DNA of 64,000 nt, from the IMG/VR virus record IMGVR_UViG_3300011906_000002, positions 1 through 64,000 of that record; one strand, 5' to 3'. Positions 31,980-49,364 of this stretch are shown here, one piece after another (the stretch's first letter is position 1; each line of letters opens with the position of its first letter). The DNA is from an uncultured virus (IMG/VR IMGVR_UViG_3300011906_000002). Taxonomy: Duplodnaviria > Heunggongvirae > Uroviricota > Caudoviricetes. The notes beneath the pieces were generated by a model. That model made no database searches. It was not told where the DNA came from and saw only the letters and a list, made by a program, of their open reading frames with translations. The translations under genes were made by a program, and so were the position numbers.

Positions 31980-32139
31980 GGCGGTATTCTTAGCAGGAAC
32001 AGCAGAAGAAGCCCTGTTGTTGACAGCTTTGGCCTACATGATTCAGACCGAAAATCTGGGCATGTGTTTTGCAACGCAAGCTTCTCTCCAGAAATGGTAT
32101 GAGGAAACAGCCAAGAGGGCTAACTTGCGAGGTAAGTAA
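31726..32139 (+). CDS. Putative outer-membrane spanin lipoprotein (Rz1-like); start uncertain
   Basis: KR-LLIALAITLLLLLLMG-C lipobox followed by a Pro-rich segment, in an alternative frame overlapping the i-spanin. Confidence 0.65.
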   Translation: MLFPISNTSWRSTPRLLSLLSWPWAITPKLPNPKRLLIALAITLLLLLLMGCGTRLPPPNNLPELPSQVPVELQKRAPVQPPPDKAVFLAGTAEEALLLTALAYMIQTENLGMCFATQASLQKWYEETAKRANLRGK

Positions 32140-32140
32140 C

Positions 32141-32548: not shown

Positions 32549-32594
32549 CGGCATACAGGGAGGCCAAGGCCTCCCTGTAGGCTTTTATGCTGCT

Positions 32595-33092: not shown

Positions 33093-33094
33093 GA

Positions 33095-33808
33095 CTACAC
33101 CTTGACTTTAAGGTTACCTGGATGCAGACCCAATACAAACTTCTGCTCAACCTTGATTGCACATTCAGCTTTGGTGATGCGTCCGTCTTTGTTGACGTCC
33201 AAACCTTTGTTCTGAATGTAGGCTTTACCCTTACCTTCGACAAACAGAACGTAGTCTTCCGGCTTACCTACAGCGACAGGGTAGAGTATGCGCATATAGA
33301 CGTCACTAAGCGTCTTGACCTTCCCCGCATAGGGTTTGAAGAACTTGTAGACGTACTCGAGCTGAGCTTCAGCTGAGAGTTTGACCAGCGCCGCGGTGGT
33401 GGTACCCACGTCTTTAGCGGCCGCTGTACCAAACTGGATCAGACCGTAGTAAGGAGCACCCGCACCGTTCTTGATCGAAGGGCTGAAGGTCTCTCCGGTC
33501 TCGAAAGCCATGCACGCCATCAGTTGATCAGGACCTTGCCAACCAAGTTTCAGATCACTCGCCATTTGAGCCACACGAGCGATGAATTGATCCGAGACTT
33601 TATTCGACCACGCTGTTGCCACGCAATACGCAAACAGAATATCCGACATCGCTTCGGGTTTGGATTTCTTGTGTACAACCATCCGCCGAGCGTTAACGAA
33701 TGCGCCGTGAGAGATACTGCCCCACAAACCGTCAATCAAGCCGGTGTACAGACCCAGTACCTTAAGGCCACGCTGGAGTTCTTTCAAGGTTTCTTTAGTT
33801 ACGGACAT
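33095..33808 (-). CDS. Modular endolysin: peptidoglycan-binding domain plus lysozyme-like/lytic transglycosylase domain
   Basis: ELQRGLKVLGLYTGLIDGLWG (PG-binding); MACMAFETG (catalytic Glu); YYGLIQF; EF-hand-like LDVNKDGRITKAE; GAGGA SD before ATG 33808. Confidence 0.85.
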   Translation of the reverse strand: MSVTKETLKELQRGLKVLGLYTGLIDGLWGSISHGAFVNARRMVVHKKSKPEAMSDILFAYCVATAWSNKVSDQFIARVAQMASDLKLGWQGPDQLMACMAFETGETFSPSIKNGAGAPYYGLIQFGTAAAKDVGTTTAALVKLSAEAQLEYVYKFFKPYAGKVKTLSDVYMRILYPVAVGKPEDYVLFVEGKGKAYIQNKGLDVNKDGRITKAECAIKVEQKFVLGLHPGNLKVKV

Positions 33809-33822
33809 GTCATTTTCCTCAT

Positions 33823-33934
33823 TTAAACGATAGACACCCATTGTCCAGAGACGGCTATAGGTGCATCAAAGACCCAGTTAACACTTGATTAACGGGCGTC
33901 CCGTTACCCAGACCCCCGTGCGTTTGATTCTCAT
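33823..33934 (-). pseudogene. Internally deleted remnant of an adhesin-like paralogue
   Basis: MRIKRTGVWVTGRPLIK is joined out of frame to VNWVFDAPIAVSGQWVSIV*, matching the N- and C-termini of the two neighbouring paralogues. Confidence 0.8.
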
Positions 33935-33946
33935 ACCCTCACCCCT

Positions 33947-34429
33947 TTACACAACGATTGTCCAAGAACCCTGGATTGAGATTGGGTATGGAAACACCCA
34001 CCGAAAATAGGTTCGATTTCCATGGCGGTAGTTATTGACATTCTCGCCTTTGATGCCGTTTAAATAAATGGGTCGCAAAGACATGTCACTAACTTTCCCA
34101 ACCACACACAACTCAACCCATTGGTAAGGACCTGTCCCTAAATAAGGGTCTCCGCCGGTGACAAAAGACTCTACGGTATTGCCCACCAACAGCCACGGTT
34201 TGGATGCCGACCCGAAGCTGGTATAAGTGTTGCTATATCCGTAAATGGATTTAAATAGGTCCCCACCTACTACAATCCCACTTTGCCATAACGTGGCTTG
34301 TGTCACCGTCACCAAATCGGCCCAGCGTCCATTTATTTTAATCAACATCCGCGTCACAGGTTTCCATAGACCCCGTACTTTGACGGTGTTGACCCCCAGT
34401 ACCCACCTTCCTCCTTTTCTTACAAACAC
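33947..34429 (-). CDS. Small adhesin-like protein, paralogue 2
   Basis: VRKGGRW...VKVRGLWK...IKINGRW; shares YG.....FG..S.P.L, GTGP..W.E..V.G and NRTY..W.F with paralogue 3. Confidence 0.65.
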   Translation of the reverse strand: MFVRKGGRWVLGVNTVKVRGLWKPVTRMLIKINGRWADLVTVTQATLWQSGIVVGGDLFKSIYGYSNTYTSFGSASKPWLLVGNTVESFVTGGDPYLGTGPYQWVELCVVGKVSDMSLRPIYLNGIKGENVNNYRHGNRTYFRWVFPYPISIQGSWTIVV

Positions 34430-34500
34430 AATATAGTCCCCCGACTATTCACCCCCAATGAAATTCCCCCGTCCCATTTGTTGTGTGTGTGTTTTGCAAT

Positions 34501-35001
34501 TTACGTATTGATTACCCACTGACCTGAGGTAGGAAGTGCGACGTCAAAACTCCAGTTCAGATACGTGCGATTCTGCTCTGCCAAGAAAGCATTACGTACC
34601 AAACGACCAATCTTACCATTGATCGTGATATCGCCTGCGTAGATTCCACTCGCGTTTCCTTCAACGGCCATTTCGATCCACATGTTTGGACCAACCCCTG
34701 TGAAGTCTTTATTACCAGTGATCATGTAATGAACACGGTGACCACTCTTCAGGTAGGGGTGCGATGTGTTCCCATAAGGGTTGGCTACAATAACGTTGAA
34801 ACCATACTGAATGTAACTGCCAGCATTGACACTACCGACTGTAACAGTTGCTGCGTACAGGTTGTTCAAAATACCCCGGTAGACAAATTCAATCCATCGT
34901 CCCGCTTCTTTGATCAGATACCGTACAGGCTTTTTCCACGTACCGGCGTGTTTGATTAGGGGAATCGTGTTAATCCAAACACCTGCTTGTTTAATTCTCA
35001 T
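34501..35001 (-). CDS. Small adhesin-like protein, paralogue 3
   Basis: MRIKQAGVW...IKHAGTWK...IKEAGRW. Confidence 0.65.
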   Translation of the reverse strand: MRIKQAGVWINTIPLIKHAGTWKKPVRYLIKEAGRWIEFVYRGILNNLYAATVTVGSVNAGSYIQYGFNVIVANPYGNTSHPYLKSGHRVHYMITGNKDFTGVGPNMWIEMAVEGNASGIYAGDITINGKIGRLVRNAFLAEQNRTYLNWSFDVALPTSGQWVINT

Positions 35002-35078
35002 ACAAAACCCCGTTAGGTACTCCCTTCTCATAAGATACCGGGCATAAAACCCCAGGGAGGCCGAAGCCTCCCCAGGAC

Positions 35079-35633
35079 TCACAACAGCTCGATGTAGTAG
35101 TCGTTAACCAAGGTTAACCGCATCTCATCTTTGACTGGCGGTACGTAGTGTTGCAAGTAACTTGGCAGGACCACCAAATCCCCAGCCGCCGGACTGTATT
35201 TAAAATCTCCGAAATAACTGTCACGAACAGACCTTGGATATCCACGACATGCATTGCCACGAGGATCGTACAGGACGATTTCTGATTCGTAATCGTCAGG
35301 ATACAAGATGGTGGTGATGGCTGAACTACCGTGTAGGTGTGCACCCAATGATTTACCTTCGGCTAACCACCGCCCGAAGCTTTCCACTTTGACGTTTTGG
35401 TAGTCGTACCCAAACTCTTGTTTGATGAAGTCCACAACAATCGGAGTAATCCAAGTGTCACGCACCCCAATCAGTTCAGGGAACTCTTCCCGAGTCGCCG
35501 GATAGGGTTTGTCATCCCCCTCAGGTGACATGCAGTGCAACGCCAGAATCTCATCACCAATGGCTTGCAAGTCACACTTGTCTGCAAGGTTAGTCACGGC
35601 GATGCGAGTGCGCCAAGGTTCGATTAATTTCAT
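35079..35633 (-). CDS. 2OG-Fe(II) oxygenase-like protein (TIGR02466-type HxH)
   Basis: AHLHGSS..T.ILYP, DPRG, GDLVVLPSYLQHYV and RLTLV. Confidence 0.8.
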   Translation of the reverse strand: MKLIEPWRTRIAVTNLADKCDLQAIGDEILALHCMSPEGDDKPYPATREEFPELIGVRDTWITPIVVDFIKQEFGYDYQNVKVESFGRWLAEGKSLGAHLHGSSAITTILYPDDYESEIVLYDPRGNACRGYPRSVRDSYFGDFKYSPAAGDLVVLPSYLQHYVPPVKDEMRLTLVNDYYIELL

Positions 35634-36184
35634 TTTTCCTCCACCACCAAATCGGTTACCAGTGACAGACGCATTTCGGGTTCATAACCACCCACACAAT
35701 GGGTTAGATACGCGGGAAAGATCAACAGCTCACCTGCTTGGGGTTCGTACCGGAAGTTTGCAAACTGTCGATCACGGATCTCTTTGGGAATGCCTCGTCC
35801 CGCCGAGCCACGCGGGTCCATGATAATCAACGGTGCTTTACTTGCAATGGGGTAGAACACCGAACTCAGCGTTGAGAAGCTGTGTTGATGTGGCTCCATT
35901 CCACGTCCGTCAGTAACCGTCAAACCAAAGTGTTGGAAGTAATGTGGGTGCTCTGAAAGTTTGGCCCCGTATTCAACCAACAGGTAGTTAGCCAAGGCTG
36001 GACGAATGTGCTCTTCTTGTAGCGCTCGCAAGATTTCAAACTCAAGCCGTACCTCAGCACTCAAGTCTTGTCCTGTAGGTGTCATCAGAATCGCTTCAGC
36101 GATGGCTTCAAGATCAACCTTCTCAGAGAGGTTAATTCGCCACACCACAGTGCTCCAGGGGTGTTCTCTCACAATGTCACCCAT
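35630..36184 (-). CDS. 2OG-Fe(II) oxygenase-like protein, tandem paralogue
   Basis: PHQHSFS..SSVFYP, DPRG, GELLIFPAYLTHCV and RLSLV; ATG 36184 overlaps the end of the upstream gene. Confidence 0.8.
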   Translation of the reverse strand: MGDIVREHPWSTVVWRINLSEKVDLEAIAEAILMTPTGQDLSAEVRLEFEILRALQEEHIRPALANYLLVEYGAKLSEHPHYFQHFGLTVTDGRGMEPHQHSFSTLSSVFYPIASKAPLIIMDPRGSAGRGIPKEIRDRQFANFRYEPQAGELLIFPAYLTHCVGGYEPEMRLSLVTDLVVEEK

Positions 36185-36614
36185 TGACACGCTCCAAACC
36201 TTCGGCAGTACACTCCAAACGGAAGTACTCGGCTGACATAGGCGCCCAACCGGATTCAATCCAATTAGGCATCGTGGCAAGTTCTGCCAGAATCGCTTCG
36301 TAGGTATCGGGGTCTTTGCTGTAGATTACAAAGAAGTCGTCGTGACCTAAGAACAGATCCGAGTCATCCAGTGATTCACGTAGCGGAATACCGTATTCCT
36401 GTTCCAACAAGGTGGCATAGATGATCGCCACCGCATAACTCTTGGCCGGGTAGACCAGAGGGAACTCAGCCTTACGGAAGTAGTTCAGTGCATTCTGAAT
36501 CAACTCAGGTTGTCTGATCCACTCCATGTTTTCGAAATCGTCGCTGTGTTCTTGCACTAGCTCGTGATACAAACGCTGGTACAGTTTGTAGTCGTGTTCA
36601 ACGGGTGTGTTCAT
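36177..36614 (-). CDS. Hypothetical protein in the radical-SAM cluster
   Basis: Translationally coupled on both sides; YPAKSYAVAIIYA. Confidence 0.75.
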   Translation of the reverse strand: MNTPVEHDYKLYQRLYHELVQEHSDDFENMEWIRQPELIQNALNYFRKAEFPLVYPAKSYAVAIIYATLLEQEYGIPLRESLDDSDLFLGHDDFFVIYSKDPDTYEAILAELATMPNWIESGWAPMSAEYFRLECTAEGLERVNG

Positions 36615-37696
36615 GCTTCTTGCCTACTGCTTAAAAGCTTATTGAGTTCGGTACCACAGTACTGCAGTTCTTTACCGTACTCACGGGTTAGGTCGTGGCG
36701 GTTCTTGATCCCAAGCGGACAGTGGTCGATCTTGAGGTAGCGCATCGTGGTATGGAGGTCACCGTGTGCACAAACGTTGACGTGACAACAATCACCGCAG
36801 GTTGGATGATCGGTGAACTGACTTAAGTTTTCGAAGTACTGGTTTTGACGGTACTCAATTACCTGATCAGCATCCCAGGGCTTAGGAATCTCGTAGAACG
36901 GATCGAAGATTGGAAACTTTTCCATGATCACGGGGATGTGATACAACACTCCGTCCCGATACCCCAACTCGACACCATCAAAGGGATCGTGTAACAGGTG
37001 ACCTACGAATTTCGAGTCGTGGTTGGCTATCACCTGAGTGAACTTATAGATGTCGTGTTTGAATTCATCATGACGTAACAGGTTTTCAAAACCATTACGA
37101 GAATGTGTGAAGGTGTAGTCTTTGATGGTCCGTACACCTAAATTTAAACTCATGATCTGGTGGTGATATTCAGGCGTGAACGCCGCCATGTTATCCCGGA
37201 ACATATTGATGGTTAGGTAGACGCTTTTCAGATGGGCTTTGCTAAGCCTGCTTGCAAAGAGCTGTACTCGTTCGGTTAACAGCTTCAAGTACTTTTCGTT
37301 GTAGCTGTTCTTAACTGTGATAGGTACGACCAAACGAATACCTTTGCCTGCCATCAGTTCATCAGCCAAATCGGCTAATTCAACAATCCCCTCTTCACGT
37401 AGCAGGGCCAGGGTCAACACGACGCTCTGGAAACGTTCAGCCATACCTTGGACTAATTCACTACTCATCACTGCCAAGCCATTCTTAGCTGACAGTACAT
37501 CAGTAGGGGCGAGGCTGAACTCAAAAGGACGAAAGCCTTTGTTCTGTAAGTCATCGACTAATGCAAACAGACGTTGGGCTTCATCACTTTCTACAGGTTC
37601 GGGTTTGTGATCTTTGTCCACTGTACAACCACCACAGTGGTAATCGCACCCTTCGAGTACTTCAAGAGTCAGGTTAATGTCACACAGTCTGTCCAT
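36611..37696 (-). CDS. Atypical radical SAM protein (CDYHCGGC) with Cys-rich C-terminus
   Basis: CxxxCxxC near the N-terminus; C-terminal CGDCCHVNVC...HC; no GGE motif. Confidence 0.75.
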   Translation of the reverse strand: MDRLCDINLTLEVLEGCDYHCGGCTVDKDHKPEPVESDEAQRLFALVDDLQNKGFRPFEFSLAPTDVLSAKNGLAVMSSELVQGMAERFQSVVLTLALLREEGIVELADLADELMAGKGIRLVVPITVKNSYNEKYLKLLTERVQLFASRLSKAHLKSVYLTINMFRDNMAAFTPEYHHQIMSLNLGVRTIKDYTFTHSRNGFENLLRHDEFKHDIYKFTQVIANHDSKFVGHLLHDPFDGVELGYRDGVLYHIPVIMEKFPIFDPFYEIPKPWDADQVIEYRQNQYFENLSQFTDHPTCGDCCHVNVCAHGDLHTTMRYLKIDHCPLGIKNRHDLTREYGKELQYCGTELNKLLSSRQEA

Positions 37697-38714
37697 CTTC
37701 CACCCCCACCATGCAGTCTTTGATGCTCAGACGTTCCATAAGGCTTGTGATGCCCTTTTCAACACAACTGCTAAGATACACACAGTTCATGCACTGCGTG
37801 CCTTCTAGGTGCTCTAGAGAGCTTTGTTGGGCCTGTGTACGGATTGTCAGCAAGTGCTCCATCGTCCAAGGACGTGGGATTTCAAAAAACGGGTCGATAA
37901 AGGCGCAGTCGTCTTTTAAGAACGGTACCCAATACAACTTACCGTCAGTGTAGAGCAGGTTCATCATAGTCCCGGTGTCGTAACACAGATCCGGATTCTG
38001 ACGCCGCTCGTCCTCACCTTCAAGTTCCTTATAGAAGTCAGAGATCAGGTAAGACATCCGCCGCATGGTTTGTCCAAGCAACAGGTCCTTGACTTCTTTG
38101 CGCCCATACGGAATGTTGAGAATGTCATCTTTGTCCACCGGGAACTCAACATCCAACCCACGGGCCAGGTTTTCTTTGTAGTGCTCGTTCATGGTGTCTG
38201 TGGTGCAGTTAACCACAAAACCTGCTTCGTTCAAGTACGCTGACTTAAACGCCGCTTGCGCATGTCGCATGCGGTGTACTATGCCGTCTGAGAACTTAGT
38301 GTTACGAAAGTAATCAGGAGCCGCTGGAATCAAGAACCGAATGCGTTGTCCTGGTGCTGCAGCATCGACCTCAGCACACATCTCATCGTACAACTCCAAA
38401 CGCTTTTCAAGCATCGCCATCTGGAGAGTGAATTGATGGAACATGTGGATGATGTCACGCACGACAGGGTCACGTAGAACTTGGTAGCCGTTAGTGGCTG
38501 ACATGGTGTCTGTCGCCCCAAGACCTAAGTCAAAGGCTACGTACCCGGCGTCAACCATCTCTTTAAGCAAAGCCAAGATTTCAGGCATGTCGGCCAAGTT
38601 ACCACCGATCTCTCGGTTGACCATACAACCACCGCAGTGGTGATTACATCCCTCGTAAAGATCGAGGGTGATCTCTAAACGTTGGCGATGGGGAACTATC
38701 ATAGCTCGCTCCAT
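37680..38714 (-). CDS. Atypical radical SAM protein (CNHHCGGC) with Cys-rich C-terminus
   Basis: Paralogue of 36611-37696 (shared DPF.EIP.PW); CMNCVYLSSC...DC. Confidence 0.75.
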   Translation of the reverse strand: MERAMIVPHRQRLEITLDLYEGCNHHCGGCMVNREIGGNLADMPEILALLKEMVDAGYVAFDLGLGATDTMSATNGYQVLRDPVVRDIIHMFHQFTLQMAMLEKRLELYDEMCAEVDAAAPGQRIRFLIPAAPDYFRNTKFSDGIVHRMRHAQAAFKSAYLNEAGFVVNCTTDTMNEHYKENLARGLDVEFPVDKDDILNIPYGRKEVKDLLLGQTMRRMSYLISDFYKELEGEDERRQNPDLCYDTGTMMNLLYTDGKLYWVPFLKDDCAFIDPFFEIPRPWTMEHLLTIRTQAQQSSLEHLEGTQCMNCVYLSSCVEKGITSLMERLSIKDCMVGVEDGQTV

Positions 38715-39625
38715 TTAACAATGAGGTTGTGAAACCCGTTACAGGATTCATTCAAATCCACCACAGGACGCAAGTGTTCAGACAAACACCCTCCGAAGTA
38801 ATCACACTTCCCACATACCGGGTTGTGACTCACTCGCCGGCGCTCAGCTTGACACCACTTCTTATAGCCTGTCACACCGAATAGGGGTAAGAAGTACTCA
38901 CGGTCTTGGTCATCAAACTCCAGTACCGCAAACTCACCCTGAGGGGTAATGTACAGGTGGTCATCACTGAATGCGTTGCGGGTCCCTGCTAAGACGTCTT
39001 GCAAAAGAAACTCGTTTTCCACCTCGAAACTGCGTTCAGGGTGGGTCAACACCTTATACACAAAGTCTTCGAACTCGGTGAAACTCACCGCGTCAGCGTT
39101 GGCTTGGTTAGTGCTATAGGGTTTGAATTCCACCCCGTACATCTGACCCAGCAGGTTAAAGGTATAGACACATTCATCGACACTGACTGTATCCAAGAAT
39201 GCGCGTCCCACCAGAGTCAGCACTCGGTACTCACGTGGCAGGGTCAACATGTTCTCTAATACTTTCTGGGATTTTTCCCGTGCACCGAAGTCGTAAGAGA
39301 CCGACAAGGTGATGTCAGGATCAAGAGCTGTGTCATTAACTAGAGACAGGTTGGTGTTGAGGTTGATGTCAGTACAGCCCATTTCACGCACCAGCGCGAG
39401 CAACCCATCCAGATACGCCTTAGGTAACAACAACACCTCACCCCCGTAGATGTCCACGTGTTCGATGGTGTAGTGTTCAGCCACTTCAGCCAAGCGCACT
39501 TTCAAAAGATCCAGTGGCAGTAGGGTTTGGTCACTCAGTTGTTGCTCGGTGAGGTAGCAAAAACCACACCGGAAGTTACAGTAGTAGCTGGGGTTCAAGG
39601 AGATGGTGATAGCGGGCTTGTTCAT
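38699..39625 (-). CDS. Radical SAM protein with SPASM/twitch-like C-terminus
   Basis: CNFRCGFCY, YGGEV, NTNL, SVSYD and CGKCDYFGGC...SC. Confidence 0.88.
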   Translation of the reverse strand: MNKPAITISLNPSYYCNFRCGFCYLTEQQLSDQTLLPLDLLKVRLAEVAEHYTIEHVDIYGGEVLLLPKAYLDGLLALVREMGCTDINLNTNLSLVNDTALDPDITLSVSYDFGAREKSQKVLENMLTLPREYRVLTLVGRAFLDTVSVDECVYTFNLLGQMYGVEFKPYSTNQANADAVSFTEFEDFVYKVLTHPERSFEVENEFLLQDVLAGTRNAFSDDHLYITPQGEFAVLEFDDQDREYFLPLFGVTGYKKWCQAERRRVSHNPVCGKCDYFGGCLSEHLRPVVDLNESCNGFHNLIVKWSEL

Positions 39626-39629
39626 GACA

Positions 39630-40715
39630 CTATCCTTTAAAAATCAACTGCAGACTTTCATCCACATACGGCGTAGGTTCTAAGATCCCCTCCATACCGT
39701 TCATGCGAATGATGGCTGGGGCATTGGCTTTCATAGCGAGGCAGTGTTGTTCCACCAGACCCAGGCGTTTAGTGTCGGCAATGGTTTTCTTACACCCGTT
39801 ACACAATTCAAACATTGGGCAGACATAGCAGGACTCTTTCAGACTGTCCAACTCAAACTGCTGAAGCGGTGTGAAGAACTCCCCTGCCATCTCACGTTTG
39901 AAGTCAATCGGGTTTTCTTGATCATCCCCAAAGTGACCACAACTGTAATAACCACCGCCTGGTTGTAGGGTGCGAATACCTGAGTCGCAATCACGAGAGG
40001 TTGGGCAGGTTGTAGAGTGCCCTTGAAGTTTTTTAGCCACTTGCTTGGTGTTGTACTCCCACTCCATCAAACCGGCTTCAAAGATCTCCACGTAATGGCG
40101 GTACATCTCACCACGGGTATACAACTTACCTTCGTTACCCATCGTGACCCCGCCGACTACTACTTCTTTGCCTGAAGCATTGGCGTAGTTAAGCTTACAC
40201 TCAACCCCTAGGCGCTGAGCCAAGCGCACCGTGTCCAGTACGGTGTGGGCATTGGAGTGATCGATGACTGCAATAAAGTCAGGACGGTAGCCTACGTGTT
40301 CAAGCATGGCGTCACTACAGGCAATAAAATCGGCTTCGGTGAAAACCGAACCGTCACCTTTGCGTCGACCATCGCCATATTGGAAAGAGGTGGTTACACC
40401 CACCCGAGGATGATTGAACAGAGGGGCCCACAGAGCCGGCTTCTTATAGAAAGGCCACAAGTTAGTCGTGAAGCTGATGCTGGCTTCAGAACCTAGTTCA
40501 TCGAGCTTAGCAATCAGATCCCAGTAGTACTGCGGAGAAACCATTAATGGGTCACCACCATTGAGAATGATGGTCTGAGTATCGGGGAACCGTTGGATGA
40601 ATTGAATTACTTCACTCAGCCCGACGCTGTCATTAGAGTCTTCAGACAGATATGTGCTTGAGCAAAAGGTGCATCGGAAATTGCACTTAGCAGTTACTTT
40701 CAATATCAAATCCAA
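39630..40715 (-). CDS. Radical SAM/SPASM protein
   Basis: CNFRCTFC, NGGDP, TTNL, CPTSRDC, SCG and CYVCPMFELCNGC...HC; TTG start after AAGGAAGG. Confidence 0.9.
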   Translation of the reverse strand: MDLILKVTAKCNFRCTFCSSTYLSEDSNDSVGLSEVIQFIQRFPDTQTIILNGGDPLMVSPQYYWDLIAKLDELGSEASISFTTNLWPFYKKPALWAPLFNHPRVGVTTSFQYGDGRRKGDGSVFTEADFIACSDAMLEHVGYRPDFIAVIDHSNAHTVLDTVRLAQRLGVECKLNYANASGKEVVVGGVTMGNEGKLYTRGEMYRHYVEIFEAGLMEWEYNTKQVAKKLQGHSTTCPTSRDCDSGIRTLQPGGGYYSCGHFGDDQENPIDFKREMAGEFFTPLQQFELDSLKESCYVCPMFELCNGCKKTIADTKRLGLVEQHCLAMKANAPAIIRMNGMEGILEPTPYVDESLQLIFKG

Positions 40716-40716
40716 T

Positions 40717-40959
40717 TTAGATTCCTTCCTTATCGAGCGGCAGACTGTTGATCTCATTCTCGCTCACCCAAAAGGACTCAGCGTCAGTTACGTAACGAGT
40801 CACTCGATACGGATACGGGGCACGCGCGCTGACTTGAAGTACTTTGAGAGCATCGCCCTTTTCGGCGTTGACTTTAGTTTTACCTTTTATGCCGCCGACG
40901 TTTTCAGAAACAATGGTACGGTTGGCATAAACAACATCGTTAGGCTGGTAGAGATTCAT
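40717..40959 (-). CDS. Small hypothetical protein (80 aa) inside the radical-SAM operon
   Basis: TAAGGAG SD; upstream ATGGTATAAT and a hairpin. Confidence 0.7.
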   Translation of the reverse strand: MNLYQPNDVVYANRTIVSENVGGIKGKTKVNAEKGDALKVLQVSARAPYPYRVTRYVTDAESFWVSENEINSLPLDKEGI

Positions 40960-41041
40960 GGCAGACTCCTTAGTCTTTATTATACCATCTAGAACAGACG
41001 TAATAATTGACCGCCAGGGAGTTACCCCCGGCGGCCAGTTG

Positions 41042-42040
41042 TTACAAGATTTGATCGAACATCTGTTTTATGCTGCACTCGGTTGTAGTACCCTCAACGA
41101 AGCTGTGGTGCAAGAAACACCGCAACCCGCACCGTTGATAGTACTCACACGACAAACAGCCGTAGTGGTCCAGGAAACGCTCCTCAGCCGCATTCTTAGC
41201 TTGCAGCCCCAGTTTTTCATCCAAGACGGCATCTTTACCAGCTTCTGACCAACAGGTGGTGACCACACCATCCTTGTTGATGATCTTGGTTGACCGACAA
41301 GTGGTGATGTTTTCTTGGTTCTCCTTCCATGCAATCAACGGATGAGAGTTGGGGTGGTGTTCGTTCAGGTACAGGTAGAGCTTCCCGATCAGGTCTTCCG
41401 AGGGTTGCAACCGTTCGTAGTTGGTACTCGGGATGTAGTGGTCGAAGTACACAGAGAAGTTTTTGCACAGGTAGTTAAGATGTTCAGTCTCAACCCCTGA
41501 CATGATGGTCTCGATGTTCTGTTTGGTGATCACCACATTGACCGTGTCGACAAAGTCTTTGACCAAGAACAAGTTGTAAAAGAACCGCTCTCGATCCTCT
41601 GGGTTAAAGCGCCCGGCGGGATCGTAGGAAGTGGCTATCTTGACTTTGCCGTGTGGTTGAAGCAAGGTCATCAAGCCAATAACGCGATCTACATTCTGAT
41701 AGACGAGATTGGTACCGAAGACCACCGTAACGTCCTCGTAGTAGTCAAACAACCGTCTGGCGATGTAGTAGTAGTTCTGGAATAAATGGAGAGGGATCTC
41801 ATCCAAGAACAACTCACCCCCAGTCAGGTTTACTACATAACGGTCTTGTGGACTGCTGTTGGCTAACAAGGCGTCTACCTTAGCCCACATGCCATCGCCT
41901 TCCATCCCCACTTTGGAGTCGTGGTCTTGATGACAGAAGCTACAGCGCAAGTTGCAGTACTCAAACAGAATCAGGTGGGCTTCTTTCAACTCACCTTTTT
42001 TGTCGGCTAACAAGTCAACCAACGGAATCAGTCCAGCCAT
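41042..42040 (-). CDS. Radical SAM/SPASM protein
   Basis: CNLRCSFCH, TGGEL, GTNL, TSYD and CLSCEYYQRCGLRC...EC. Confidence 0.9.
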   Translation of the reverse strand: MAGLIPLVDLLADKKGELKEAHLILFEYCNLRCSFCHQDHDSKVGMEGDGMWAKVDALLANSSPQDRYVVNLTGGELFLDEIPLHLFQNYYYIARRLFDYYEDVTVVFGTNLVYQNVDRVIGLMTLLQPHGKVKIATSYDPAGRFNPEDRERFFYNLFLVKDFVDTVNVVITKQNIETIMSGVETEHLNYLCKNFSVYFDHYIPSTNYERLQPSEDLIGKLYLYLNEHHPNSHPLIAWKENQENITTCRSTKIINKDGVVTTCWSEAGKDAVLDEKLGLQAKNAAEERFLDHYGCLSCEYYQRCGLRCFLHHSFVEGTTTECSIKQMFDQIL

Positions 42041-43098
42041 TTCGCACCCATCCCTGCTCGGGTCAAAGTTCCCAACGGCGCATTGATCATAAAGCGCAGA
42101 AGGTTATCGTCGTACTTACCAATGTCGCGTTGGGAGACTCGAACCATCTTAGGTCCGTGGTCAAAGAAGCGATGCAACAACCCAAACAACGTTTCAGTGT
42201 CCTCGATCACAAAGCCACTGAGGTAGACTTCGTGGATGCTTTCCATGTAGGCCACGATGCTAAAGTCGTTGTTGTGTCGTAACAAGAACAACATCTCATC
42301 GATCATTTCAGCCAACCAATCGACCGGGTAACGATCATTGATATTGGACAACATCACAAAGTCTGGGTTGTTCAGATACTTGAAGTTATAACACCCCTCA
42401 AACACCGTTTCCTCATTAAGTAGGCTGTCAAGGTCTGCGCCGATCAATTCCCACTTTGCAGGATTACCCATGAAGGTTGAGAGATAACCCATGGTGTCAG
42501 GTACGTTGGTCAACAACACCCGATCGATCAAACGACGCAAACGCTGACCTACTGTACCCAAAGGCATGCCTAACCGAATACCCAGTACGTCCCACTCAAA
42601 CGAACGCACGATGTCAGCCTTAGACACCCAACGAGACAACACCTGTGTTAGCCAATCGTTGTGAGCGTTATCAAACGCTTCACGCACTTTAGGCTCAGTG
42701 ATATTCACAGGGTTAATGTGGCTGGTACGCTCACGCATGGTGGTCGTGGTACGACAGTTGAGGATACTTTTCTTACACAGACACAGGTAACGAAAGGTCT
42801 CGTAATCAACACAAGGCATATAAGCGAAGACTAAAGCGGCCCACATTCGAATGTAGGTCGCCTCGTCTGCGTACAAATACGCCTCATCCTTCCACGCCAA
42901 CTGCTCGAGCATTTCTTCAAAGGTCTGTTCACCAGCCTCATCCAAAGTCTCAGCAACGTGTATAGGTTCGATTGCGTTCTCGTTCCCGTCCAGCATTAGG
43001 AAAGGCAGCCCCATCTGTTTAGAGATCACCGCACGGTTTTTCTCGTCGTCAACCTCACGATCAACTTCTACGTACAGACTGTTAAACAGATGGAACAT
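42028..43098 (-). CDS. Hypothetical protein in the radical-SAM cluster
   Basis: 356-aa ORF, coupled to its neighbours. Confidence 0.75.
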   Translation of the reverse strand: MFHLFNSLYVEVDREVDDEKNRAVISKQMGLPFLMLDGNENAIEPIHVAETLDEAGEQTFEEMLEQLAWKDEAYLYADEATYIRMWAALVFAYMPCVDYETFRYLCLCKKSILNCRTTTTMRERTSHINPVNITEPKVREAFDNAHNDWLTQVLSRWVSKADIVRSFEWDVLGIRLGMPLGTVGQRLRRLIDRVLLTNVPDTMGYLSTFMGNPAKWELIGADLDSLLNEETVFEGCYNFKYLNNPDFVMLSNINDRYPVDWLAEMIDEMLFLLRHNNDFSIVAYMESIHEVYLSGFVIEDTETLFGLLHRFFDHGPKMVRVSQRDIGKYDDNLLRFMINAPLGTLTRAGMGAKWLD

Positions 43099-43100
43099 AC

Positions 43101-43808
43101 TTAAGCCTCTAACAATTCAGGAAGCAACTGATCGTGGGTCTTCATGAGACCGACAAAGCCTTCGTGAAGCTCATCCTCGTGAAGCGCGCCGATGATGGTG
43201 AACAGTACGTTGTCACGTGATTCGAAATGGTGATACAGGTTCTTACCTGCGAACACACGTCCTTCAAACCAATGCTTGCTGTAACGCACCGGACGACCTT
43301 GGGCAAAGTACAAAGCCATCCCCGGATGGTTCAAACAATGCACCCAATTCAAACCACTGGCAGTTTCATCGACGCCTGGCCACAGCGCAGGGTCACCAAT
43401 GACTTCTTCACCAATGAGGACACGGGTTGCATACAGCGGACACATGTCCAAGCGCTCAGCCCAGATGTCCAAAGCGGCTCCGTGTGCTTCAAAGAATGCT
43501 TGAGGATCGAAAGGCACCGAACCTGGGAGACCCTCGCGAATCAACAACAAGTTCACCACGATGCCCACCAAAGCCTCTTGGTAGAACATCACAGGGACTT
43601 CAAGATACGCAGCAGTCAGCTCCATCAGGTCGGCTTCACCGTCGACCAGCAAATCTACTTCGACCTTGAGGTTGCTCAGGTAGGTCAGAAACGACTTACC
43701 CTTGAACTTACTTTTGCTGTACTCGATCTCAAAGTGCAGGTCCTCACTGAACTTGCGCTTGAGGGTTAAGATTGGGATCGGCGCTGGGGTCGTGATCACT
43801 TCTTGCAT
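43101..43808 (-). CDS. Hypothetical protein in the radical-SAM cluster
   Basis: AGGAG SD; SKFKGKSFLTYLSNL. Confidence 0.75.
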   Translation of the reverse strand: MQEVITTPAPIPILTLKRKFSEDLHFEIEYSKSKFKGKSFLTYLSNLKVEVDLLVDGEADLMELTAAYLEVPVMFYQEALVGIVVNLLLIREGLPGSVPFDPQAFFEAHGAALDIWAERLDMCPLYATRVLIGEEVIGDPALWPGVDETASGLNWVHCLNHPGMALYFAQGRPVRYSKHWFEGRVFAGKNLYHHFESRDNVLFTIIGALHEDELHEGFVGLMKTHDQLLPELLEA

Positions 43809-43823
43809 AAGGGGAAACTCCTA

Positions 43824-44435
43824 TTAACGACGGCCGCGGTTGGAGTGGCAGTCGGAGTGGCAATTGCTGTGGCAAAAGGTTTTGGTGATCCGCAGGGTTT
43901 GGTTGCTGAGGTTCACGATGTGGGCGTAGACGCGCTCACAATAGTTGATCACTTCTGCACGACTGGCGTTCTGTCCAGCCGACATAGGGCTGGCTGCATA
44001 GTTGTCGATACCGTGTAGGTACGGGTCTACGTAGTCACTAGCAGACCAAGCACCGCCACCGTTACTGTTGGCCGGACGAGCCTGTGTACGGGTTAGGGCC
44101 ACACTACTGGACAGTCGCGTTATCCCGGTGACGTTCTGTCGTACCGACAACGAACCTTGGCTGTTGTAATACGAGAGAAATTGCATCGAGCGTACACGTG
44201 CCCAGTTACGGCTGTAGGCTGAGATGTTTGCTACCACCGCATCTGCCTTCACCGGACCCACCGGCAACCACGAAGAGGAGAACTCGCCTGTTACGATGCC
44301 TGTATTACCTCCGTAGTTCGGATCGCCAAAGTCGCTGGGGTAGCTGTTGCTACCATACGAAACACGGCTATCCAAGCGGTTACGCAGATAACTGTTGATG
44401 ATGTTGGCTACATCCTGCCGAGTGATTTCTGCCAT
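43824..44435 (-). CDS. Candidate modification-target protein with C-terminal Cys-x-x-x repeat (CHSN-CHSD-CHSN-RGRR)
   Basis: S/N/G-rich 203-aa protein; three of its four Cys lie in the terminal CHSx repeat; located among six radical SAM genes. Confidence 0.75.
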   Translation of the reverse strand: MAEITRQDVANIINSYLRNRLDSRVSYGSNSYPSDFGDPNYGGNTGIVTGEFSSSWLPVGPVKADAVVANISAYSRNWARVRSMQFLSYYNSQGSLSVRQNVTGITRLSSSVALTRTQARPANSNGGGAWSASDYVDPYLHGIDNYAASPMSAGQNASRAEVINYCERVYAHIVNLSNQTLRITKTFCHSNCHSDCHSNRGRR

Positions 44436-44440
44436 TTCTT

Positions 44441-45484
44441 TTACGCCTTGAAAATGAGGTTGGGGTCATACGGATTAGGACGACCGCTTAAATAACGTAG
44501 GGTGTTCTTCAGACCCGCACAACGATAGCCTTGCCATGACAAGCGATGACAGTCACCACCACAGAGGTCAAACACGTCACACTGGATACACACCTCAGAG
44601 AAGTCCAACTCCCGGACAATCTCATCAACTCGCCCTTCAGAGGCTAAGTATTCCTGGGGCGATTGGTGTATGCTGCCATGGTTGTGCTCACTGGCTGCAT
44701 TCGGACACCCACCTAAGGTACCGTTAGAGTTGATTGTGGTGAGGTTCTGTTCACAGTTGCGACAGTTGGTATCCACAGCCACCATGTTGTACTTGATCTT
44801 TTCGATCAGGATATCCAGGGTTTTGATACGCACAGGATACTGACCGGTTTGATAGTGCTTCAGCAACTCCAAGTACCAGTTGTCTTGAGCCTCGTTGTCT
44901 GGAAACACGTGTTCATTTCGTAACGCATTGCCGCCTACTGTCAAACGTTCAAGCGACACATCACGAACGAGCAACTCTGACATTTGGGTAAGGAACCAGA
45001 CTGGCGATTGTTCAACCAACTGACGAGACACCGATACCTTAAGTCCTAACTCTACACCCGCTTGCGACAATAGCGAAACGTTGTGGTGCCACAACAATTT
45101 CTGGTTATCGGTTTCCCACCGAATCCACGGGTCCCAACTGGTACCAATAGAACCCCCTAGACTCTTTTGGATGAAATCCACAAGCCGAGGTTTTAGAGTG
45201 AAGGTGAGGTTGCTGTTGGCAGACATCGACACAGCGTCATCGCCTTCGAAGTGTGCCGCAAAGCGCTCTAGCAGCTCGATGGGGACGAGAAAGGGTTCAC
45301 CGCCATGCAACTCTAGGTGTGTGTGCGTACCGGGCTCAAACGTCTCCCTGAGGCCTTTGATCCAATTGGCTGTCGCATCCGGGTCGAACCGTGTAGCGTC
45401 TCCAGTACGTCCGCTGGTAAAACAGTGACTACAATTGAGGTTGCAGGTCCCAGTGGTTTTGACATAGATCGTTTTGACCGTCAT
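44441..45484 (-). CDS. Radical SAM/SPASM protein
   Basis: KTTGTCNLNCSHCF, HGGEPF, NSNL, TSWD, CRNC, GCP and CIQCDVFDLCGGDC...RC. Confidence 0.92.
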   Translation of the reverse strand: MTVKTIYVKTTGTCNLNCSHCFTSGRTGDATRFDPDATANWIKGLRETFEPGTHTHLELHGGEPFLVPIELLERFAAHFEGDDAVSMSANSNLTFTLKPRLVDFIQKSLGGSIGTSWDPWIRWETDNQKLLWHHNVSLLSQAGVELGLKVSVSRQLVEQSPVWFLTQMSELLVRDVSLERLTVGGNALRNEHVFPDNEAQDNWYLELLKHYQTGQYPVRIKTLDILIEKIKYNMVAVDTNCRNCEQNLTTINSNGTLGGCPNAASEHNHGSIHQSPQEYLASEGRVDEIVRELDFSEVCIQCDVFDLCGGDCHRLSWQGYRCAGLKNTLRYLSGRPNPYDPNLIFKA

Positions 45485-45975
45485 AGCTTTTCAACCATCC
45501 ACTTCTCAAAGCCCAAACTGATAATGATCGACGCCTGTTCATTTACGGCATAGTGTTTCACGTCTGCTGGGATGTACAGGGTATCGCCGGCTTTTAGATG
45601 ATGAGGTACACCCTCGACCACCATGGTTTTCTCTCCCTCGACAACACAGATCAACACATGATCAGGATCGGTGTGTTCGTGGAAGCTGTAACCTCCTGCT
45701 GGTGCTATAAAGATGTGGGCAGTCACTGGACCTCGATGCTTGTAGGAATTGGCCTTGTGTTTGCACCAGTCCCACACACCCTGATCGAAACTTTCAAAGT
45801 GTTCGAGTTTGATGCTGGATCGAAAGTCCATCAGCGACGCTGAGTTCTTGAACGGAACAATCACATTGGGTTCAGTGATCACGTGAAGAACTTGTTGCTC
45901 ACGGGCGTAGTCAGAACTGATGCACAGATCAAAGTACTGATTAGCTTTAGCACGAATCTCATTTTGACTCAGCAT
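45481..45975 (-). CDS. Cupin/JmjC-like Fe(II)/2OG hydroxylase
   Basis: SFHEHTD (HxD), VVEGEK and LKAGDTLYIP..KH (distal His). Confidence 0.8.
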   Translation of the reverse strand: MLSQNEIRAKANQYFDLCISSDYAREQQVLHVITEPNVIVPFKNSASLMDFRSSIKLEHFESFDQGVWDWCKHKANSYKHRGPVTAHIFIAPAGGYSFHEHTDPDHVLICVVEGEKTMVVEGVPHHLKAGDTLYIPADVKHYAVNEQASIIISLGFEKWMVEKL

Positions 45976-45989
45976 GGAGGTTACTCACT

Positions 45990-46799
45990 TCATGGGTTAA
46001 GGGCTTCGATCTCCGACTTGAGTTCGTCGATCTCTGCACGCATCTCGGCAAACAGTTGTTCGGCTTGGCTAAGCTTCATCACCGAATCACGCCGAATGGG
46101 TACGAGTGTCCCTTCTGGCTTTTCTTCTTGAGGGCGTTCACGAACGCCAAAGGTGCAACCCCGCAGGCCGCCGAGCAACACAATCTGGAAGTCGTTACGG
46201 GCTGCATCACCGCACCAGATTTCAGTTTGTTCTACACCGTGATCGTCTTTAACCTTGCGGTAGAAGAAGTCAACTGTGTAACGACCGCTCAGGGTGTTAA
46301 CGATCGGTGGACGACCTTCACGGCCAATACGCAGATACGCCACCGGACGTTCAGCCAAGAACCCGTATGGACCACCCCCAATCAACAGGAACAACAGATC
46401 CTCGTTGAAGGTCTTGTTGCCACCGTATTCGCTTGAGTAGTTCGCAGGAATGGTGACCAGACGTGACCAACCCCCTTTACTGAGTGGGATGACCATATAC
46501 GGATGGCTGGCTTCACGGATGCGTGTCTTAACTTCCAACAACACGTCATCGAGTGTCCGCCCAGCAAGGCGATCAGCATCCAACACACGTCCAGCAGGGT
46601 CACGGACGATGGCCAGGACTTCTTCTGCACTCAGACCACCCAGACACAAGGCATTACGAGCAGTTGCGCTCTCGGCGATGTATTGAAGCACTTCCTCAAA
46701 GGTGCGTCCTTCAAGTCGCTTGGAGTTTTGGGCCGTATCCAACAGACCCAACTTCTCAGACAAGGCTTGTTTAAGCTCATCGCTAATCATTACATTCAC
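45990..46799 (-). CDS. Tail-fibre-associated protein
   Basis: Three A-x-N/D-x-x-x-L-x-G-x-T/S repeats shared with the fibre genes; C-terminal coiled coil. Confidence 0.6.
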   Translation of the reverse strand: MNVMISDELKQALSEKLGLLDTAQNSKRLEGRTFEEVLQYIAESATARNALCLGGLSAEEVLAIVRDPAGRVLDADRLAGRTLDDVLLEVKTRIREASHPYMVIPLSKGGWSRLVTIPANYSSEYGGNKTFNEDLLFLLIGGGPYGFLAERPVAYLRIGREGRPPIVNTLSGRYTVDFFYRKVKDDHGVEQTEIWCGDAARNDFQIVLLGGLRGCTFGVRERPQEEKPEGTLVPIRRDSVMKLSQAEQLFAEMRAEIDELKSEIEALNP

Positions 46800-46800
46800 C

Positions 46801-47580
46801 TTAACGGTTATTTTTCAAATTTGTGAACTTTGTTTTGAGACCGGTCAACTCTTGACATAGGGGTTCTGCCATGGCGTCAAATTCAGACTGGAACAAAGCG
46901 GTTTCATAAGAAAGGCGGCTTAACCCCTCTTTTGACAAATCCACAGGTTCTTGTTCGGACAAACCGTAGGAGTGGTCACGAGTGGAGTTTGCGCAAGCCA
47001 TCGTCAGGGGTGCACGGCTATCGGCACCGTACCAGAGTTCTGTGTAGATCACCCCGTCGCCAGGTACCGTACGCGTCACGAACTCCCCGCAGTACTTACC
47101 ACTCAGAACCAAAACTTCAGAACCACGGCCTTCTACGCCTAAGCGCAACATCGCTACAGGGCTGTCACTTTCCGCGTAATTCAAACCACCCCCAAACAGA
47201 CCGAAGTAAAAGTCTTCACGGTTAGGTGTAGATTCAACTGTCACCAGGTGGGTCCAGTAATGACTGCAGGCCTTAAACCGAACGCCTTGGAAGGTGCGGG
47301 TATCGACTAACCCCATCAATAGAGATAGAAGTCCCTCTTCCTTCAGTCCACCAAAACTAGCAGCCACTGGGGCATGAACTTGAGGTTGTTGACGAATGTC
47401 GATCAGTTCTTCAAGGCGGTAGCCAGACAAGGCTTCAGTATTATTCACCACCCCACTTTCTTCAAGGTAGGTTTGTAGCTCACCTAGGGTGATGCCGTCT
47501 ATTAGGTAGCTGTCGTTAACGATACCGGTTTTACGGTCTACCAACATCGCCAATTGTTCAGGGGTAAGTTGTTCGGTCAT
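46801..47580 (-). CDS. Tail-fibre-associated protein, paralogue of 45990-46799
   Basis: Same repeat module; shared W..LVT, GGG......PVA.LR.G.EGR, LSG.Y and TE.W.G...R motifs. Confidence 0.6.
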   Translation of the reverse strand: MTEQLTPEQLAMLVDRKTGIVNDSYLIDGITLGELQTYLEESGVVNNTEALSGYRLEELIDIRQQPQVHAPVAASFGGLKEEGLLSLLMGLVDTRTFQGVRFKACSHYWTHLVTVESTPNREDFYFGLFGGGLNYAESDSPVAMLRLGVEGRGSEVLVLSGKYCGEFVTRTVPGDGVIYTELWYGADSRAPLTMACANSTRDHSYGLSEQEPVDLSKEGLSRLSYETALFQSEFDAMAEPLCQELTGLKTKFTNLKNNR

Positions 47581-47664
47581 AGAAGCGATACTCAGGTTAC
47601 AGACAAATAAAAAAAGAAGCAAGTATGGGCTGTTAACCCATACCTGTTTCTCTGAAAAGTAAAA

Positions 47665-49305: not shown

Positions 49306-49364
49306 ACAAGTTACTCCGAATAGGGGTATGGGAGGTCAGTCACCACACCCTTTGGAAAAGATGA

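Follow-up and report, generated by a model that had tools for sequence, protein, structure and literature searches.

In the bacterial HXS antiphage system, the effector HxsA is matured by the radical S-adenosylmethionine (SAM) enzymes HxsB and HxsC together with HxsD, and a covalent change has been localised to a single S-H-R-S-S motif (Li et al., Nat Commun 2026, PMC13128918). Related chemistry is known from the triceptides, where radical SAM/SPASM enzymes link an aromatic ring, including C2 of histidine, to Cβ of the third residue; such His-C2 to Cβ links are documented on HAA, HNR and HTK motifs (Phan & Morinaka 2024, PMC11499958). Here, we analysed a cassette of 14 genes that lie in one orientation and mostly overlap on the minus strand (positions 35079-45975 according to the open reading frame (ORF) listing) of a 64,000-nucleotide stretch from an uncultured virus of the Caudoviricetes (IMG/VR record IMGVR_UViG_3300011906_000002). 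This whole stretch is referred to as the window. The cassette encodes six radical SAM-type proteins (rSAM1 to rSAM6), two predicted 2-oxoglutarate (2OG) oxygenases, a cupin and a protein with a Cys/His-rich C-terminus, the CH-tail protein, which is a candidate substrate of these enzymes.

The likeness to HXS lies, as far as the published description of that system goes, in a full-size protein, HxsA, that carries short His-x-Ser repeats with many basic residues and is served by at least two dedicated radical SAM enzymes and a small helper. HXS is bacterial, consists of four genes in the order D-B-C-A and yields a periplasmic, peptidoglycan-binding effector that blocks entry of phage DNA, whereas the cassette is carried by phages or predatory bacteria, comprises four to nine radical SAM genes plus cupin and 2OG oxygenase genes, and has a Cys before each His in a motif that sits, with RGRR, at the extreme C-terminus of a probable virion component. 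The NCBIfam models for HxsA, HxsB, HxsC and HxsD (TIGR03976-03979) were not reached; the sole match listed is that of rSAM3 to HxsC, with 34.1 bits versus a cut-off of 267.9 and confined to residues 13-100 (for rSAM1 and rSAM3, the NCBIfam matches listed are the best 25 of 37 and of 38 families, respectively). We do not regard the cassette as a member of HXS, which is the nearest described system and may work along similar lines. With the triceptide pathways (HaaB, HtkB, YhhB), as far as described, the cassette shares repeated aromatic-X-X3 motifs in which His is allowed, as well as maturases of the SPASM type, and both the residue statistics of the tail and its natural His to Tyr/Phe variants fit this motif logic. 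Triceptides are short bacterial leader-core peptides that usually employ one maturase; in contrast, the 'leader' in the cassette would be a folded virion protein, at least four different radical SAM enzymes are present and the similarity of the enzymes is weak.

Two further systems act on whole proteins or subunits. QhpC, the gamma subunit of the periplasmic redox enzyme quinohemoprotein amine dehydrogenase, is crosslinked by one radical SAM/SPASM enzyme, QhpD, through Cys-to-Asp/Glu thioethers. The common trait is radical SAM crosslinking of Cys in a subunit that assembles into a complex, not in an exported peptide, whereas rSAM2 scores only 17.8 bits versus the cut-off of 453 for QhpD (TIGR03906). 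The anaerobic sulfatase-maturating enzyme anSME, which makes formylglycine in sulfatases and does so at a different sequence motif, likewise modifies Cys or Ser within a whole protein. Among solved structures, it is the nearest in sequence to the rSAM3 family, sharing the eight-Cys SPASM layout: the family profile aligns nearly full length to the anaerobic sulfatase maturase PDB 4K36 (E 2.3e-5). In the family models, however, rSAM1 and rSAM3 remain at 39 and 34 bits, respectively, versus a cut-off of 349. A first-pass annotation, made by a model from the letters and ORFs of the window, had drawn a parallel to bacterial CXXX-repeat maturation systems; this parallel was not supported, as no such NCBIfam model appears among the matches listed; the tail has three repeats only. 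A secreted peptide of the bacteriocin type, that is one made by the ribosome and then modified post-translationally (RiPP), was rejected since there is no short leader-type precursor, peptidase or transporter. Our literature search found no description of the cassette; genome papers list its radical SAM, cupin and 2OG genes as accessory genes or count the radical SAM proteins among Fe-S proteins.

The genes of the cassette are as follows, in the order of transcription.

45481-45975, minus strand: cupin, metal-binding and JmjC_2-like at its C-terminus, opening the cassette (PF07883, PF08007, phrog_8014)
44441-45484, minus strand: rSAM1, radical SAM/SPASM enzyme encoded immediately before the CH-tail gene (TIGR04085, phrog_1802)
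43824-44435, minus strand: CH-tail protein of 203 aa, candidate virion component and enzyme substrate (tail motif, synteny)
43827-43874, minus strand: core tail CHSN-CHSD-CHSN-RGRR, last 16 codons of the CH-tail gene (tail logos)
43101-43808, minus strand: unkA235, universal partner whose fold was not recognised, always directly after the CH-tail gene (phrog_20767, synteny)
42028-43098, minus strand: unkB356, present in a subset of cassettes only (no family; orthologues in window-like and some other loci)
41042-42040, minus strand: rSAM2, radical SAM enzyme with a 7-Cys SPASM-type C-terminus (Cys layout, phrog_1802)
40717-40959, minus strand: unk80, small ORF, uncertain gene (BLAST relatives only in the close loci L178 and L180)
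39630-40757, minus strand: rSAM3, most conserved enzyme of the set, anSME-like architecture (PF04055, phrog_1802)
38699-39625, minus strand: rSAM4, radical SAM enzyme with a shorter Cys-rich C-terminus (PF04055, phrog_1802)
37680-38714, minus strand: rSAM5, divergent radical SAM-like paralogue (CNHHCGGC, phrog_31457)
36611-37696, minus strand: rSAM6, divergent radical SAM-like paralogue (CDYHCGGC, phrog_31457)
36177-36614, minus strand: unk145, universal small protein (phrog_20737, E 2.4e-38)
35630-36280, minus strand: 2OGa, PF13759 oxygenase, more likely start ATG 36184 (PF13759, phrog_81)
35079-35633, minus strand: 2OGb, PF13759 oxygenase (PF13759, phrog_81)

The ORF coordinates bear out the earlier description of 14 co-oriented, mostly translationally coupled genes: provided that 2OGa starts at ATG 36184, neighbouring genes share 4-41 nt at nine junctions and are separated by 2-15 nt at four and by 82 nt at one. 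Likewise, no Pfam or NCBIfam family of peptidases, ABC transporters or immunity proteins is matched by any of the 14 proteins, as had been noted before. The least certain gene of the 14 is unk80, whose relatives are confined to close loci.

The CH-tail protein of the window ends in CHSNCHSDCHSNRGRR, and its full tail reads FCHSNCHSDCHSNRGRR-stop. At the DNA level, the tail pattern matches once in the window as compared to zero times in 100 shuffled versions, and the 223,076-bp IMG/VR record, which has terminal repeats, contains this one tail gene only. A search of 50,697 phage records by megablast, with the whole block as query, yielded no match. From these records, tblastn with rSAM1 and with rSAM3 retrieved the same 15, corresponding to 12 distinct phages. 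Among them are Pseudomonas phage pPa_SNUABM_DT01 (DT01), the Ralstonia/Burkholderia group RSL2, RSF1, FLC4, FLC6, FLC8, SURPRISE13 and RsoM3USA, and the T4/Rak2-like giants Agrobacterium phage Atu_ph07 and Sinorhizobium phage Phosso. Synteny holds for the annotated regions of the cultured phages, and in carriers other than Atu_ph07 the tail gene is labelled hypothetical. In DT01, RSL2 and Atu_ph07, the gene that follows rSAM1 ends with CHxxCHxxCHxxRxRR, and the protein bodies are ~20% identical. A DNA pattern for (CHxx)3-RxRR-stop was found in at least 123 IMG/VR stretches. Inspection of 83 loci longer than 5 kb, comprising 80 IMG/VR loci with flanks and the cultured-phage loci L001-L003, revealed radical SAM genes beside the tail ORF in every case (83/83), commonly in the order cupin, rSAM1, tail, unkA235, rSAM2, rSAM3, rSAM4, unk145 and then the oxygenases. 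The number of radical SAM genes per cassette ranges from four to nine across loci, and the carriers come from soil, freshwater and sea.

The first-pass annotation had proposed co-occurrence of enzymes and tail protein as a check. For the reverse test, the search was seeded on an alignment of rSAM3 (a locus search seeded on the single unkA235 protein had found no relative), which returned 340 viral stretches, and the best 80 of these 340 were examined. An exact tail is encoded in 63/80 loci, and in 4/80 the syntenic gene carries a variant tail, namely CHTSCHSNCNCNRGRR in L213, four CHxS units followed by a Gly-rich end in L240, and CHYSCFTSSCHFSRGRR in L250/L255. Twelve of the 80 loci run into the contig end before the expected position and one (L223) has a complete neighbourhood but no tail gene. 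Hence, a Cys/His-tail protein is present in 67 of 68 evaluable loci, and such radical SAM clusters do not routinely lack it. The protein family is large: a profile built from 88 tail proteins retrieved 903 clusters (50% identity) at E<=1e-3 among 1.84 billion representatives, with a body length of 110-290 aa across the family. Occurring in 12 large cultured phages, in no fewer than 340 IMG/VR stretches and on chromosomes of Bdellovibrionota, and represented by ~900 clusters, the cassette is a widespread, uncharacterised module.

In a second architecture, seen in L004, L029, L037, L038, L042, L058, L070, L078, L081, L083 and others, a tandem pair of tail proteins of only 125-140 aa precedes some five rSAM5/6-like genes, and the cupin-rSAM1-rSAM3-rSAM4 set sometimes lies farther along. 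In RSL2, RSF1 and SURPRISE13 (L002, L127, L128), genes for dihydrofolate reductase and for homing endonucleases of the GIY-YIG and HNH types are inserted within or beside the cassette.

Proteomic data from Atu_ph07 connect the CH-tail protein with the virus particle. The homologue in this phage is gp170, since its calculated mass of 31.89 kDa equals the value in a Supplementary Table S5, in which gp170 appears in the virion proteome with eight unique peptides and a coverage of 35.16% (Attai et al. 2018, PMC6102473). Within rows gp57 to gp707 of this table, the entries jump from gp143 to gp170 and on to gp176, and thus the products of the flanking cassette genes, gp164-169 and gp171-175, are not in the virion list. 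The upstream fibre-like protein gp176 is in the list, with 14 peptides. As judged from its homologue gp170, the CH-tail protein of the window is probably a virion member, too. According to the same table, gp170 was found in gel bands 1-9 and was most abundant in band 1, where otherwise proteins of 75-139 kDa peak, whereas most proteins of ~30 kDa peak in bands 7-8 (PMC6102473). That is, gp170 migrates far above its own size, which could be caused by disulfides through the Cys residues of the tail or by a covalent link.

The composition of the tail was assessed in 125 tails selected by the pattern, designating the third and fourth positions of each C-H-x-x repeat as X2 and X3, respectively. At X3, Ser occurs 106, 97 and 110 times in the three repeats, and the remaining residues are Asn, Ala, Gln, Asp, Lys and Arg. 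Thr, Gly, Val, Ile and Pro occupy none of the 375 X3 positions, meaning that β-branched residues never occur there, whereas X2 holds 57 Thr and 65 Gly. The same X2/X3 pattern was obtained with 58 tails from the rSAM3-seeded loci. Since X3 is Asn, Asp and Asn in the tail of the window, the hydroxyl group of Ser is not required. Natural variants provide further information: 4 of 11 close relatives identified by body similarity end with CHSN-CY(K/T)A-PHxN-RGRR, that is His is replaced by Tyr and Cys by Pro, so that Cys is lost but three aromatic-x-X3 triads persist, and Phe takes the place of the second His in L250/L255. Among 150 representatives of the family, 134 have the exact tail, four have an extra Gly before RxRR, and the remainder are truncated, extended or variant, including two with CHSN-H(A/S)NT-CHxS, in which one Cys is gone and all three His triads are retained. 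The tail thus presents three H-x-X3 triads, as expected for a triceptide substrate with its aromatic-X-X3 motifs. The comparative data do not support the earlier emphasis on Cys repeats and implicate the aromatic His-x-X3 triads no less than the Cys.

All six radical SAM proteins indeed contain CxxxCxxC within the first 36 residues and five to eight further Cys residues in the C-terminal part, as noticed in the first pass. rSAM1 carries CNLNCSHC at residue 14 and eight C-terminal Cys including CX2CX5CX3C; rSAM2 has CNLRCSFC followed by C248, C263, CX2CX5CX3C and C322; rSAM3 possesses eight conserved C-terminal Cys, arranged as CX2CX5CX2C plus flanking Cys. SPASM-type Cys sets are full in rSAM1, rSAM2 and rSAM3 and reduced in rSAM4-6. 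The Pfam cut-off of PF04055 is passed by rSAM3 and rSAM4 only (rSAM4, 32.4 bits), is missed by rSAM1 by 0.1 bit, and is not attained by the weak matches of rSAM2 and rSAM5 (rSAM5, 18.8 bits); rSAM6 has no Pfam match at all. The SPASM model TIGR04085 in NCBIfam is passed by rSAM1 alone (29.5 versus 27 bits), and phrog_1802 ('radical SAM') matches rSAM1-4 with E values of 1e-32 to 1e-55 (rSAM1, 1.2e-54; rSAM2, 2.3e-39). rSAM5 and rSAM6, both in phrog_31457, are 24% identical. Pairwise identities among rSAM1-4 are just 21-27%, whereas their respective orthologues are 40-66% identical across phiKZ-like, T4/Rak2-like and uncultured phages (rSAM3, 50-66%; rSAM4, 40-63%). As these four proteins have diverged from each other and yet each is conserved across phages, they appear to perform four separate conserved jobs.

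Cyclophane maturases, i.e. YhhB, AmcB, FxsB and GrrM/OscB, are among the best NCBIfam matches of rSAM1 and rSAM4, and YhhB is the best one for rSAM1 (E 1.1e-11, 44 bits versus a cut-off of 445). None of these cyclophane-synthase models was reached, the best scores and cut-offs being 44 and 445 bits for YhhB, 29 and 370 for FxsB, 22 and 310 for GrrM/OscB and 32 and 425 for AmcB. A weak match of rSAM2 to PapB was obtained as well, and phmmer with rSAM1 against PDB sequences retrieved nothing at E<=0.01. Because all similarities stay far below the family cut-offs, no radical SAM protein of the cassette belongs to a characterised family.

The first-pass annotation counted three Fe/2OG-type oxygenases, which holds for two of them: 2OGa and 2OGb, 35% identical to each other, pass the PF13759 cut-off of 27 with 34.1 and 34.4 bits, respectively, but do not reach TIGR02466 (24 and 17 bits versus 62.5). 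The third, the cupin, matches Cupin_2 (PF07883) with 44.9 bits versus a cut-off of 27.2 and JmjC_2 (PF08007) with 39.1 bits over its last 38 residues, and it displays H-E-H...D/E and a distal His; from these data it is not callable as a 2OG enzyme. Its orthologue precedes rSAM1 in most related loci. Five proteins, unkA235, unkB356, unk80, unk145 and the CH-tail protein, have no Pfam or NCBIfam family, and for unkB356 and unk80, which also lack a PHROG family, loose PHROG scans were uninformative. An AlphaFold2 (AF2) model of unkA235 is confident (predicted local distance difference test (pLDDT) 89, predicted template modelling score (pTM) 0.87), and Foldseek retrieved nothing with it; the best VIA Z score was 4.2 on a β-α-β unit of 52 residues. 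Comparison of 41 unkA235 members with Pfam gave scattered chance-level matches only, and their profile had no match among PDB sequences at E<=1. In the ESM Atlas, the nearest viral clusters of unkA235 are without family, leads to Asp/Arg hydroxylase and 2OG clusters are weak (scores of 0.91) and unconfirmed, and nothing was found for unk145, which follows rSAM4-type genes in most loci. A complex prediction for unkA235 and the CH-tail protein, run without controls, gave no verdict (score of 0.00). The AF2 model of the CH-tail protein itself (pLDDT 70, pTM 0.67) shows an α/β body and a low-confidence helical tail; fold searches with it gave no Foldseek match in the PDB at E<=0.001 and a best VIA Z score of 4.1.

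Gene order links the cassette to tail fibres. For 40 loci, we scanned the ORF that lies closest upstream of the cupin gene against PHROGs; it resembles a tail-fibre gene in 30-36 of them and in 30/40 matches a PHROG of the category 'tail'. In 6/40 loci, the matches are solely to PHROGs of unknown function (chiefly phrog_22593 and phrog_6427) and cover the last ~130 residues, a region that in most of the 30 tail-category ORFs also matches the tail-fibre family phrog_19602; of the remaining ORFs, 1/40 encodes an HNH homing endonuclease and 3/40 have no match. The phrog_22593-type C-terminal domain recurs in 29/40 upstream ORFs whatever the length of the fibre (299-2020 aa), and seven window-like loci have a phiKZ-type fibre (phrog_2163) instead. 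On this evidence, association of the CH-tail protein with a fibre is about as likely as not. In the window, the cassette is flanked by the following genes.

47665-51674, minus strand: two tail-fibre genes upstream of the cassette (phrog_2163, phrog_13857 and many tail-fibre PHROGs)
45990-46799 and 46801-47622, minus strand: two paralogous unassigned genes (269/273 aa) between fibres and cupin (no family in loose PHROG scans)
33095-33841: transglycosylase/endolysin-like gene downstream of the cassette
32595-33092, 33947-34429 and 34501-35082, minus strand: three paralogous small proteins (165, 160 and 193 aa)

The two upstream paralogues are 27% identical, and a strong terminator-like hairpin at 47646-47620 precedes them. 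The three small downstream proteins, 21-31% identical and with repeated N-terminal G-x-W motifs, flank the lysin gene and have weak PHROG matches only (phrog_21772; one minor-tail match with E 3e-4). A scan for sigma-70-like promoters in 32000-51900 of the window gave four sites as compared to a shuffle mean of 16.5, i.e. fewer, which says little because the phage may use its own polymerase. Further genes in the window, for ribonucleotide reductase, a DnaB-like helicase, a polymerase, phiKZ-type structural PHROGs, a baseplate protein and SbcC, identify the virus as a jumbo phage. At 13303-15510 and 60333-63290, ORFs of 730-940 aa are found on both strands over the same stretch; the minus-strand ORF at 13303-15510 has no PHROG match and the ORF at 60333-63149 has weak tail-fibre matches.

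We consider modification of one of the phage's own proteins, likely a component of the virion or of an appendage, to be the best overall explanation for the cassette, with a probability of roughly 0.7. The same idea, as opposed to an exported peptide, had been put forward in the first-pass annotation and is backed by the co-occurrence data, by gp170 in virions of Atu_ph07 and by the upstream fibre genes; the parts concerning the CXXX model, the cupin as a 2OG enzyme and the focus on Cys were not supported. It is also likely that the C-terminal tail is what the enzymes act upon. According to this model, the 14 genes would constitute one late, fibre-linked maturation cassette. The CH-tail protein would be made in the cytoplasm, in line with the lack of a signal peptide in the tail proteins of phages and Bdellovibrionota, and its last 16 residues, (C-H-x-x)3-R-G-R-R, would be modified by the dedicated radical SAM/SPASM enzymes, with rSAM1-4 as the universal core and rSAM5/6 as accessory components. 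The cupin and the 2OG oxygenases may tailor the product further, with unkA235 and unk145 as presumed obligatory helpers, and the finished protein would enter the virion, most likely at or near the tail fibre. As a tentative proposal, which we hold to be somewhat less likely than not to be correct, each His-x-X3 triad (H-S-N, H-S-D and H-S-N in the window, usually H-x-S) could be closed into a three-residue cyclophane through a bond from a ring carbon of His to Cβ of X3, by analogy to triceptide synthases. The adjoining Cys residues might engage in thioethers or else anchor the tail to an auxiliary Fe-S cluster, and the outcome would be a rigid, polycyclic and cationic C-terminal tip.

Several points weigh against this interpretation. 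Modification of the tail is a prediction from the genes, and Cys and His are also classic metal ligands. Matches to characterised maturases in NCBIfam fall far below cut-offs and mostly cover the generic N-terminal radical SAM core. In L223, an IMG/VR locus of 21 kb, rSAM1 is directly followed by unkA235 with no tail gene, and the third repeat in L213 has Asn in place of His. The searches for the tail pattern in IMG/VR and bacterial genomes fix C, H and R by construction; tails free of this constraint derive only from the body-similarity, rSAM3-seeded and 150-representative sets, and the profile behind the last of these includes the tail columns. A location at the fibre tip is suggested by gene order only, and the body of the tail protein and unkA235 lack a recognisable fold. 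Finally, the loading buffer used for Atu_ph07, as listed, contained no reductant (PMC6102473), and therefore the high gel position of gp170 could be due to plain disulfides.

The alternative that best withstands these data takes up the metal ligands: the tail could be a metal or Fe-S site, either as a structural metal-binding part of a fibre or as an Fe-S donor or scaffold for the radical SAM enzymes, and would not be covalently modified. Perhaps its three Cys and three His, which recur at i, i+4, line a trimer axis as in fibre proteins. That Cys and His are the invariant residues, that AF2 predicts a helix for the tail, albeit with low confidence, and that the cassette needs many Fe-S clusters would suit such a site, and marine phages rich in radical SAM genes also carry Fe-S assembly genes (PMC5332604). 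A pure enzyme helper is disfavoured, however, by the Atu_ph07 virion list, which includes the protein but not the enzymes. Moreover, the natural replacements of His by Tyr/Phe and of Cys by Pro, with the rest of the tail kept, are difficult to reconcile with a metal site, the exclusion of Thr and Gly at X3 would be left unexplained, and four deeply diverged, individually conserved radical SAM enzymes that travel with one protein need a substrate. We regard this explanation as improbable.

Even less probable is a scaffold precursor, whose modified C-terminal residues would be cut off as a small cofactor or peptide and used in infection, similar to pyrroloquinoline quinone (PQQ) or mycofactocin. 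In PqqA and MftA, the core is at the extreme C-terminus. The CH-tail protein has its core at the same place, several SPASM enzymes and oxygenases in one cluster resemble cofactor pathways, and mycofactocin- and PQQ-type maturases are among the weak NCBIfam matches. Yet none of the 14 genes encodes a peptidase, the body of 110-290 aa is conserved (~900 clusters) and, as listed for Atu_ph07, present in virions, and conservation of the terminal RGRR is odd for a piece that is excised or discarded. An activity of the enzymes towards DNA, nucleotides or some other small molecule, for example in making hypermodified bases, with the CH-tail gene as an unrelated structural passenger, is hardly credible: participation of phage radical SAM enzymes in thymidine hypermodification, as described in PMC8989533, and the dihydrofolate reductase genes interspersed in the RSL2/SURPRISE13 cluster may speak for it, but 67 of 68 evaluable enzyme-seeded loci retain the Cys/His-tail gene at the same position, the pairing also exists in Bdellovibrionota chromosomes, and SPASM enzymes, going by family names, are typically peptide or protein maturases.

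In bacteria, the tail pattern was found in 47 stretches of one-per-species genomes. A real tail ORF with adjoining cassette genes is present in 37 of the 47, and 26 of these 37 are titled Bdellovibrionota; as to the remainder, L173 has cassette genes with the tail ORF cut at the locus end and nine lack both a tail ORF and cassette genes. In three Bdellovibrionota loci (on contigs of 178 kb, 1.3 Mb and 2.4 Mb), the cassette resides between housekeeping genes, the flanks encoding LolA, signal peptidase II and RecN-like and ParA/NUBPL-like proteins, and a Peptidase_S74 fibre-chaperone gene adjoins the cassette in two of the three loci examined. The idea that all bacterial matches are binned phages was rejected for Bdellovibrionota, in which the cassette is located on contigs of 1.3-2.8 Mb with housekeeping flanks. 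Several of the remaining bacterial carriers are contigs of 220-250 kb from metagenome-assembled genomes (MAGs) and may be binned phages. The cassette-bearing MAG contigs L164, L169 and L172, at 223-249 kb of jumbo-phage size, are binned as Bacilli, Flavobacteriaceae and an unclassified bacterium and may be phage genomes. The 45-kb contig L177 has been binned as archaeal.

Large phages and predatory Bdellovibrionota might share a post-translational 'claw', in which the last 16 residues of a fibre-associated protein, made rigid, polycyclic and arginine-tipped by at least four radical SAM enzymes, would engage the envelope of host or prey or aid in crossing it; we consider this extension doubtful. 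One possibility is that such a claw counters periplasmic barriers of the HXS type to DNA entry, which follow the same His-x-Ser logic. If correct, it would represent the first enzyme-crosslinked device for virion adhesion or penetration and the first case of RiPP-type chemistry building a virus particle. The known products of radical SAM/SPASM maturation are secreted peptides, a handful of enzyme subunits and, as of 2026, a single antiphage effector. Here, an unusually heavy machinery of four to nine enzymes is tied to a virion protein, as judged from Atu_ph07, in hundreds of large phages and in chromosomes of predatory bacteria. If the tail is indeed modified, this would constitute a new class of virus-particle chemistry, would offer enzymology a short, highly conserved and concrete substrate, and may partly explain how jumbo phages and Bdellovibrio-like bacteria grip or enter Gram-negative cells.

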